A program made the position numbers and the translations under genes. Positions 18,085-20,014 of a stretch of DNA of 26,005 nt are shown one piece after another. Numbering within the stretch: the first letter of the stretch is position 1; every line of letters starts with the position of its first letter. Origin of the DNA: a virus (lineage: Duplodnaviria; Heunggongvirae; Uroviricota; Caudoviricetes); the IMG/VR virus record IMGVR_UViG_3300000358_000075; one strand, 5' to 3'. The notes beneath the pieces were generated by a model that was not told where the DNA came from, ran no database searches, and saw nothing but the letters and a program-made list of their open reading frames with translations.

Positions 18085-18300
18085 ATGAAATCAATGGATA
18101 AGTTAACAACAGGTATCGCCTATGGCACATCGGCTGGTAATGCTGGTTTCTGGGCATTGCAGTTACTCGATAAAGTAACTCCGTCACAGTGGGCTGCAAT
18201 CGGTGTGCTGGGTAGTCTGGTATTTGGCTTGCTGACGTACCTGACAAACCTTTATTTCAAGATTAAAGAAGACAAGCGTAAGGTTGCACGGGGAGAGTAA
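18085..18300 (+). CDS. Class II holin / pinholin (phage 21 S-like) with dual start motif
   Basis: 71 aa; MKSMDK dual-start N-terminus and two TM segments (…[18 protein letters not shown]…[23 protein letters not shown]…); GGGGTGAGGA SD. Confidence 0.8.
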
Positions 18301-18304
18301 TTCA

Positions 18305-18649
18305 ATGACACAAAACTATGAACTGATTGTGAAAGGGATCCGCAATTTTGAGAATAAAGTTGCGGTAACTGTAGCATTAAGGGACAAAAAACGCTTTGAC
18401 GGTGAAATTTTTGACCTGGACATCTCGCTGGACCGTGTTGAAGGTGCCGCGCTGGAGTTTTATGAGGCAGCAGCCAGAAGGAGCATCAGACAGGTCTTCC
18501 TGGAAGTTGCAGCCGGGTTATGTGAAGGGGATGAGCAGTCGCCGGAAAAGCGCCCCGTAATTTTAGAGGCGCAGAATGTGTGGATAACCTACAAAGGAAA
18601 GCTACCAGGAAGAATTACTGATTCTCTGAAGACTCCACCGAAATGGTAA
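18305..18649 (+). CDS. Hypothetical protein between holin and endolysin (YdfR-like position)
   Basis: 114 aa from ATG 18305 with GGGGAGAG SD directly after the holin stop. Confidence 0.5.
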   Translation: MTQNYELIVKGIRNFENKVAVTVALRDKKRFDGEIFDLDISLDRVEGAALEFYEAAARRSIRQVFLEVAAGLCEGDEQSPEKRPVILEAQNVWITYKGKLPGRITDSLKTPPKW

Positions 18650-18887
18650 TTTTACCAGCATATTTTTCTTCCAGTAATGCCGCCAGCCACTTGAAAGAAT
18701 TTTGTTGTTCCTGGGACCATTTGGGGTTGCGTGATTCAAGCAGGAGCGATGCCAGTGTTGGTTGCATTTGTTCTCTGGGAATTGATAAGGCCAAATATGA
18801 AAATGCAACAGTGAGGGCATTTACATCATCCCGAAGCTTTGAAATGCAGTCGAGCAACTCCTGTAGAGAAATGGTGTTATTGTCCAT
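18615..18887 (-). CDS. Hypothetical small protein encoded antisense within the lysis cassette
   Basis: 90 aa with strong AAGAGGA SD; 3' end overlaps the 3' end of the 18305..18649 gene by about 35 nt. Confidence 0.45.
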   Translation of the reverse strand: MDNNTISLQELLDCISKLRDDVNALTVAFSYLALSIPREQMQPTLASLLLESRNPKWSQEQQNSFKWLAALLEEKYAGKITISVESSENQ

Positions 18888-18992
18888 AAATAATCCTCTT
18901 GATTGTCTTTACCTTTTCCCCGCCTGATTCAACAGGCCGGGACAGATAAACATATCCAGGGTTCAGAAACCGATAAATCCTGATAAATATCC

Positions 18993-20014
<1,022 letters not shown>

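Follow-up and report, generated by a model that had tools for sequence, protein, structure and literature searches.

The stretch of DNA analyzed here (the window) is the 26,005-nucleotide (nt) IMG/VR virus record IMGVR_UViG_3300000358_000075, assigned to the Caudoviricetes, and our subject is a pair of convergent genes in its lysis region. The first gene, of 114 amino acids (aa), lies on the plus strand (18305-18649) and belongs to the YdfR family (DUF1327), while the second, of 90 aa and referred to here as orf90, lies on the minus strand (18615-18887). A first-pass annotation of the window had described this pair as standing between an S21-type holin and a lysozyme, with 3' ends overlapping by about 35 nt and a clear Shine-Dalgarno (SD) sequence on the minus strand. 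All of this was confirmed, the overlap being exactly 35 nt (18615-18649) and the SD sequence being AAGAGGA at 18900-18894, 6-7 nt from the ATG start of orf90. The same annotation offered three explanations for the pair: a lysis-timing regulator, an antisense-controlled toxin-like pair, or a moron. We consider that orf90 is probably a moron-like accessory gene, in which the protein is the selected entity. Its transcription would run counter to the late operon and would most plausibly take place in the resident prophage.

Upstream of the pair there is a class II, essQ-like holin of 71 aa (18085-18300, plus strand; PF04971, E value 1.1e-33, 115 bits), followed by the 114-aa gene, which has an ATG start with GGAG 7 nt upstream. 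On the other side, a spacer of 105 nt separates orf90 from a divergent gene for an rrrQ-like lysozyme of 177 aa (18993-19526, plus strand; PF00959, E value 8e-25). Next come an Rz-like spanin of the DUF2514 family (19523-20014, plus strand; PF10721, E value 1.8e-38) and, embedded in it, an Rz1-like open reading frame (ORF) with an LTSC lipobox (19674-19970, plus strand), in the place equivalent to that of rzoQ in K-12. The N terminus of the lysozyme is rich in Gly, Ala, and Ser (residues 8-24) and, judged by eye, looks like a signal-anchor-release (SAR) sequence. Of the hallmarks of a phage-21-type cassette, a class II holin of the S21 family, a lysozyme domain, and an Rz gene with an embedded Rz1 ORF were found. 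To judge from its gene content, we are dealing with a normal lysis cassette of the S21 type (holin, YdfR, putative SAR-type lysozyme, and Rz/Rz1) in which the gap that separates ydfR from the lysozyme gene is polymorphic. Over the 1.7 kb surrounding the gene pair, the sequence is 100% identical to that of Escherichia coli O55:H7 CB9615 and also to that of further E. coli chromosomes, and the locus in the matching E. coli records is a Qin-like lambdoid prophage. In the records identical to CB9615, RefSeq gives the order antiterminator, cspF, cspB, ynfU, essQ, "YdfR family protein," minus-strand "hypothetical protein," rrrQ, rzpQ, cspI, and terminase. Both ORFs of the pair are called in CB9615 by the RefSeq annotation pipeline (PGAP), as "YdfR family protein" and "hypothetical protein WP_001315200.1."

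The identity of the 114-aa gene is clear, since it matches PF07041 over residues 1 to 112 (144.9 bits with a cutoff of 25; E value 8.9e-43) and phrog_406 over its full length. YdfR is found between a class II holin and a lysozyme in K-12 Qin, BP-4795, H-19B, mEp460, PhiR40_1, 2H10, and many Shiga toxin (Stx) phages. A tblastn search detected it in 101 phage records, many Stx phages among them, and the ydfR core is matched in 4349 of 5426 complete E. coli genomes. On this distribution, YdfR is what the gap between holin and endolysin normally contains in lambdoid phages of E. coli, and hence the 114-aa gene is not an insertion. The initial idea that canonical cassettes run uninterrupted, and that this gene had been inserted, is contradicted by K-12 Qin and by the many E. 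coli phages that carry YdfR at that position.

What does change from phage to phage is the end of the protein and the DNA that follows it. The window YdfR resembles that of K-12 Qin in having the same N-terminal domain (aa 1-69) and in lying directly after the class II holin, but its C-terminal tail (aa 70-114) is a different allele. At the DNA level, blastn homology to K-12 Qin breaks at 18512 and resumes at 18983; the 470-bp segment in between (18513-18982), which replaces 90 bp of K-12 Qin, contains the alternative YdfR tail and the minus-strand gene. The C-terminal tails differ among YdfR alleles of 103, 114, 116, 176, and 183 aa, although all of them have the core up to "...SLKTPP" in common apart from the K-12 form of 103 aa, whose sequence departs from the others from residue 70 on. 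The AlphaFold2 (AF2) model of the window YdfR has an N-terminal three-stranded sheet plus a helix, with a predicted local distance difference test (pLDDT) score of 65-80, and a tail (residues 72-114) below 50. The region between the YdfR core and the lysozyme behaves as a polymorphic slot with at least five alleles (window 18513-18982; comparison loci L002 and L103-L106): a 103-aa YdfR translationally coupled to rrrQ through an ATGA overlap in K-12, a 116-aa YdfR plus 63 nt in PhiR40_1, a 114-aa YdfR plus 50 nt in BP-4795, a 183-aa YdfR plus 320 nt in 2H10, and, in the window, a 114-aa YdfR plus orf90, uncoupled from the lysozyme gene. Searching the literature for YdfR, DUF1327, the protein accessions, and phrog_2411 (the family of orf90, see below) retrieved only one paper, published in 2026, in which K-12 YdfR is described as an interactor of RNase E. 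There, YdfR binds the catalytic (N-terminal) half of the enzyme, residues 1-72 being sufficient, RNA copurifies with it, and its overexpression alters few transcripts (PMC13232886).

For a small ORF such as orf90, it has to be asked whether it is a gene at all. It could be a chance frame in DNA that is noncoding or that codes on the plus strand, spread among databases by automatic annotation; it matches nothing in Pfam, NCBIfam, or PADLOC, and several of its database entries are truncated or frameshifted, including several forms of 50-61 aa. We collected 89 copies (from IMG/VR contigs, phage and E. coli records, and one E. ruysiae genome) that, together with the window, gave 27 distinct DNA variants. 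All of them are 273 nt long with no indels, and the frame is intact at 90 codons in 25; an internal stop was found in two and a stop one codon early in two. Pairwise ratios of nonsynonymous to synonymous substitution rates (dN/dS) were 0.17-0.4, and the variable sites were distributed by codon position as 24/22/52. However, a mirror-image ORF of 94 aa on the plus strand (18643-18927), antisense to orf90, has an equally low dN/dS (0.11-0.39), and this measure cannot assign the coding strand because the mirror frame shares third codon positions with orf90.

The assignment is decided by other evidence. Across lineages, the mirror ORF is 94, 89, 68, 60, 52, or fewer than 45 aa long and it is closed in all remote homologs, whereas the minus-strand ORF stays at 90 aa; the sense frame is the sole one open in 14 of 14 family members. 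The GAGGA core of the SD sequence is kept in 19 of 19 distinct upstream sequences, including that of a copy in a decayed genomic context (the iha island described below) where the ORF has also been retained. Besides, there are remote homologs that align without gaps at 28-60% identity, and the AF2 model is confident. Considering the integrity of the ORF, the conserved SD sequence, the gapless remote homologs, and the frame check, orf90 is, by all indications in its sequence, a genuine protein-coding gene, and the chance-frame explanation is effectively excluded. A practical warning follows, as a mirror ORF can mimic the low dN/dS of the true gene, and strand assignment needs ORF integrity across diverged and remote homologs. 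Among the database entries, eight 94-aa "homologs" of orf90 (P0041, P0046, P0048, P0051, P0054, P0057, P0062, and P0065) proved to be frameshifted forms that continue in the second minus-strand frame. Being the result of sequencing errors or else pseudogenes, they were left out of the orf90 alignments.

The homolog search suggested by the first-pass annotation placed orf90 in an uncharacterized family of Enterobacterales, phrog_2411 (E value 4.9e-57, residues 1-90 of 90), which has no functional annotation in PHROGs v4 and whose profile is matched by all 14 family members tested (orf90 and 13 others). Close homologs are confined to Escherichia and Shigella. Two profile searches, one of them over 1.8 billion representatives, recovered remote homologs of 81-106 aa in Citrobacter, Serratia, Sodalis, Chania, Gibbsiella, and Acerihabitans, with gapless alignments to orf90 over residues 8-78 at the identities given above, which go down to 28-36% in Citrobacter, Serratia, and Sodalis. 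The AF2 model of orf90, built from a 16-sequence alignment, is a three-helix bundle (helices 8-34, 38-52, and 59-77) with a mean pLDDT of 83.7, in which 59 residues score at least 90 and residues 81-90 score below 50. The protein is acidic (12 D/E versus 8 K/R, net charge -4), and no hydrophobic or transmembrane segment was detected, the maximum Kyte-Doolittle value for a 19-residue window being 0.93. It is therefore predicted to be a small, acidic, cytoplasmic (soluble) three-helix protein. The structure search gave no informative relative: Foldseek found nothing at an E value of 0.001 or lower in the PDB or BFVD (the best PDB match had an E value of 3.2), and a sequence profile search of the PDB found nothing below an E value of 0.5. 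A paper on Gifsy prophage defense proved unrelated. While YdfR was already known, what is new here for phrog_2411 is the fold prediction, the taxonomic range, the chromosomal homologs between dinI and bssS, and the recurrent backward placement.

The insertion could be delimited by comparison with PhiR40_1, a phage that lacks orf90 and whose YdfR is 116 aa long. The blastn breakpoints are sharp (18644/18937 in the window versus 2140/2160 in PhiR40_1, locus L103) and define an indel segment of 292 bp (18645-18936) in place of the 19 bp of PhiR40_1. The segment holds codons 1-81 of orf90, its SD sequence, and 49 nt upstream. Codons 82-90 fall outside it, within the antisense of ydfR, and correspond to the disordered tail of the protein, which is variable among homologs. 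The overlap encodes the end of YdfR (...ITDSLKTPPKW) and the orf90 tail (about residues 79-90), and, since the codons beyond the indel encode that disordered and variable tail, it is best read as a by-product of the junction: lacking a stop codon of its own before the junction, orf90 would run some 10 codons to the first stop in the antisense of ydfR. It is apparently YdfR that constrains the overlap sequence, "...ITGSLKTPP" being conserved in alleles that lack orf90. As to the suggested role in lysis timing, no positive evidence emerged, and the overlap encodes only a disordered, nonconserved tail.

With a coverage of at least 80%, the orf90 segment was found in 1053 of the 5426 complete genomes of E. 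coli (ca. 19%), derivatives of E. coli B included. It was also found in E. ruysiae, and 209 matched stretches of IMG/VR viral contigs encode a relative. Among the 101 phage records with YdfR it is present in only three, Chlobot, vB_EcoS-783R2, and phiSTEC1575-Stx2k, and the deposited complete genomes of Chlobot and phiSTEC1575-Stx2k carry the backward arrangement. Collinear cassettes with holin, ydfR, and lysozyme but without orf90 are found in K-12 Qin, PhiR40_1, 2H10, BP-4795, and mEp460. Outside this cassette, we found homologs facing backward between the tail genes M and L of another prophage, in a prophage of Citrobacter freundii immediately before the holin, and upstream of terminase genes. 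Another adjoins a gene for an AIDA-type autotransporter, and one is present in Sodalis without a late operon. In Serratia-like chromosomes there is an arrangement pyrC-dinI-X-bssS-solA in which X belongs to the orf90 family (L100 4001-4279, L117 2501-2776, and L120 2501-2770); dinI there has its own LexA box and terminator.

One further copy lies in a pathogenicity island of E. coli SCU-115, among insertion sequence (IS) elements and upstream of the adhesin/siderophore receptor gene iha (L006 2811-3365). This copy is flanked by remnants of a decayed ydfR 3' end and an rrrQ 5' end, and, despite a DNA divergence of 26-30% and an amino acid identity of 60%, it still has exactly 90 codons. In a neutral simulation, the ORF remained open in 4% of the runs. 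The 60 genomes with this island are all at least 99% identical (one clone) and hence count as a single observation.

Being optional, mobile, backward facing in late operons, and found in islands too, orf90 follows the pattern of a moron. Of the three original suggestions this is the only one in agreement with the data, with an optional 292-bp indel that is absent from collinear relatives. The moron concept of Hendrix and Juhala has its examples in genes such as bor of lambda and lom in lambdoid phages. Like bor, orf90 is a small extra gene in or beside the lysis region that points against the late operon, is missing in some collinear relatives, and is presumably expressed from the prophage. 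However, bor comes after Rz and encodes an exported lipoprotein involved in serum resistance, whereas orf90 is internal to the cassette, with ydfR on one side and the lysozyme gene on the other. Its product is predicted to be cytoplasmic and bears no sequence or fold relation to Bor, and the promoter and terminator of the gene are candidates. Another relevant case is ant of BP-4795, located between R and Rz, which shows that lambdoid lysis cassettes tolerate extra genes, although ant is codirectional with the late operon and occupies a different gap, while orf90 is on the opposite strand.

The orientation of orf90 also brings in an explanation based on RNA, in which the selected function would lie wholly or partly in cis and its transcription, or the resulting duplex, would act as a brake that keeps leakage of lysozyme and spanin expression low in the lysogen or that tunes lysis timing after induction; antisense promoters and RNAs of lambda and P22 are the comparison. 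All of orf90, and not just the 35 nt of the overlap, is complementary to the late mRNA that crosses to rrrQ. Moreover, in three independent prophage contexts a family member opposes the late operon directly upstream of a key late gene (the lysozyme gene in the window, the holin, and tail gene L), and the insertion in the window splits rrrQ from ydfR, genes that in K-12 are coupled by ATGA. Yet the amino acid sequence is conserved down to ca. 30% identity, including the dinI-bssS, Sodalis, iha, and AIDA loci, where there is no late operon, and most S21-type cassettes work without orf90. Because the protein is conserved at loci devoid of a late operon, an antisense effect in cis cannot be the main constraint, and we regard the brake as rather unlikely to explain the gene. 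Even so, orf90 may in addition affect the late transcript by an antisense mechanism, as the whole of orf90 is antisense to the mRNA that reaches rrrQ.

A different alternative takes the convergent arrangement itself as the functional unit. The orf90 family and its convergent partner (YdfR or its C-terminal tail) would form a two-gene module, resembling a toxin-antitoxin or a binder and its ligand, that is kept together by the 3' overlap. This rests on a similar C-terminal peptide (I-x-G-x-L-K/R-x-P-P) at the end of the convergent partner in three prophage contexts, always with overlapping 3' ends: YdfR in the window ends in ...ITDSLKTPPKW (18617-18649; overlap of 35 nt), a 63-aa gene in Citrobacter ends in ...ITGSLRAPIKL (14 nt), and a 71-aa gene in the tail region ends in ...IFGDLKKPPSY (7 nt). 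The partner genes outside the window are located at L107 4239-4430 and L091 4261-4476, both on the minus strand. In addition, ydfR and orf90 stay together in phiSTEC1575-Stx2k in spite of the swapped downstream lysis genes. Nevertheless, the same YdfR tail occurs without orf90 in most cassettes, no such partner is found beside the iha, AIDA, dinI-bssS, and Sodalis homologs, and another convergent partner lacks the motif. Apart from the peptide, the partners have no detectable homology: when those of 63, 71, and 85 aa were tried as homologs of the YdfR tail, nothing significant was obtained with blastp, a hidden Markov model of 59 YdfR tails, Pfam, or PHROGs. In the Citrobacter case, the DNA homology simply continues past the stop codon. 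The recurrence of the peptide in the tail region is left unexplained, given that the DNA there should be saturated with substitutions.

The toxin-like version of this idea, proposed in the first-pass annotation as an antisense-controlled pair, finds no support either. There is a resemblance to type I toxin-antitoxin systems such as hok/sok, which are also convergent units with overlapping 3' ends found in prophages (hokD is located in K-12 Qin). Here, however, there is no small hydrophobic toxin, no obligate cooccurrence, and no known antisense RNA family, and the overlap encodes a disordered tail. YdfR occurs without orf90 in 98 of the 101 phage records, homologs of orf90 occur without YdfR, and orf90 is acidic and nonhydrophobic. 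Neither protein looks toxin-like, orf90 having no transmembrane segment and overexpressed K-12 YdfR altering few transcripts (PMC13232886). Both the pattern of cooccurrence and the character of the proteins thus make a toxin-antitoxin or other obligate pair fail, and we find the two-gene module very unlikely. A broader combination of these elements can be conceived, in which the phrog_2411 gene and the neighboring peptide form a conserved backward module of two parts that holds back a key late gene in the lysogen, with the three-helix protein, the antisense transcript, or both restraining the lysozyme, the holin, or the tail gene as a safety device, or in which the module is a new small factor of prophage defense or exclusion. 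We hold this to be unlikely.

Returning to orf90 as an accessory gene, we looked for signals that would allow its independent expression. Our own scan found a single promoter-like site on the minus strand upstream of the gene, a candidate weak sigma-70-like promoter at 18949-18977 (TTTATC, 17 nt, TATGTT; 7 of 12 matches). Both hexamers and their spacing are kept in the 26%-diverged copy of the iha island (L006) and in phiSTEC1575-Stx2k (L004), and they are absent from PhiR40_1, which has no orf90. The putative 5' leader contains a stable stem-loop (18906-18952, minus strand; GC core at 18917-18942) with a folding energy of -23.8 kcal/mol (z = -4.65; equaled by 0 of 200 shuffles), of which variants in one or both arms were seen. 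About 40 nt past the stop codon of orf90, inside ydfR, lies a terminator-like hairpin (18546-18572, minus strand) with a 7-bp GC stem, a 9-nt loop, and UUUU. In the decayed copy of the iha island, no block 3' of the ORF is better conserved than this hairpin, whose stem there has 9 bp. The promoter candidate, the leader, and the hairpin are suggestive, but not proof, of an independent transcription unit. No RNA family of Rfam was detected over 17.4-20.2 kb, nor any known antisense RNA family at the overlap, and no LexA box was seen by eye near orf90 or near the chromosomal homolog adjacent to dinI.

If these signals are functional, the orf90 unit would oppose the late operon, running from the weak promoter in the spacer between orf90 and rrrQ through the structured leader and a strong SD sequence to the hairpin in ydfR. 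Expression would occur mainly in the resident prophage, at times when no Q-dependent late transcript is made. The product, a small helical protein, is inferred to be a trans-acting binder of some partner from the host or a phage, with an accessory function in prophage-host or phage-phage interactions, and would have no part in lysis. In the lytic cycle, the lysozyme and spanin genes lie beyond orf90 on the antiterminated late transcript, which therefore has to traverse orf90; phages with this arrangement are viable.

Several observations weigh against this interpretation. The candidate promoter is weak and lies mostly in sequence shared with cassettes that lack orf90, and a standard scan for promoters and terminators gave nothing for orf90, the promoter candidate falling below its threshold. 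The U tract of the downstream hairpin consists of only four U, and the same scan missed it. At 42.8%, the indel segment has a GC content not very different from that of the holin (45.4%), ydfR (47.1%), and rrrQ (51.3%). By itself, dN/dS is unable to separate the two strands. The recurring peptide of the convergent partner, for which the moron model offers no explanation, hints at a possible functional link, and activity of orf90 in the lysogen is inferred from orientation and analogy only. With these reservations, the holin-endolysin gap appears as a polymorphic slot where YdfR is the normal resident and in which one allele, carried by about one-fifth of complete E. coli genomes, has an unstudied gene for a small protein. 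A widespread family that opposes late transcription is a reasonable candidate for exclusion, defense, or host modulation expressed in the lysogen.

Some additional features of these loci were recorded. In phiSTEC1575-Stx2k (L004 1285-3303), the class II holin, ydfR, and orf90 are followed by two further holins and an M15 metallopeptidase that replaces the rrrQ-type lysozyme; since other lysis genes follow the block, its lysis region is composite. In E. coli 21AR0707 (L008 2350-3519), an ISEc52-like element of the IS3 family is inserted between orf90 and rrrQ, ca. 35 nt upstream of the orf90 ATG; the insertion removes the candidate promoter of orf90 and leaves the lysozyme gene cut off from the late operon. 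In the window, the lysozyme gene has no recognizable SD sequence (18983-18995, …CTGATAAATATCCATG), and the same leader is present in phages without orf90. Within the first codons of this gene, in the part that encodes the SAR-like sequence, there is a terminator-like hairpin with a T run on the minus strand (19012-19030), which would end antisense transcription shortly before the candidate promoter of orf90 is reached and is possibly due to chance.

Farther away, the lysis cassette is flanked by two cspA-type thermoregulator leaders (Rfam RF01766; 16956-17395 and 20226-20641, plus strand) that belong to cspB-like and cspI-like cold shock genes, and a cspF-like gene lies at 16604-16816 on the minus strand. 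Finally, Rfam identified an isrK RNA (9688-9764, plus strand; 61 bits) adjacent to a C4 antisense RNA (9789-9876, plus strand; 81 bits), a pair typical of the antirepressor immunity regions of the P1/Gifsy type.

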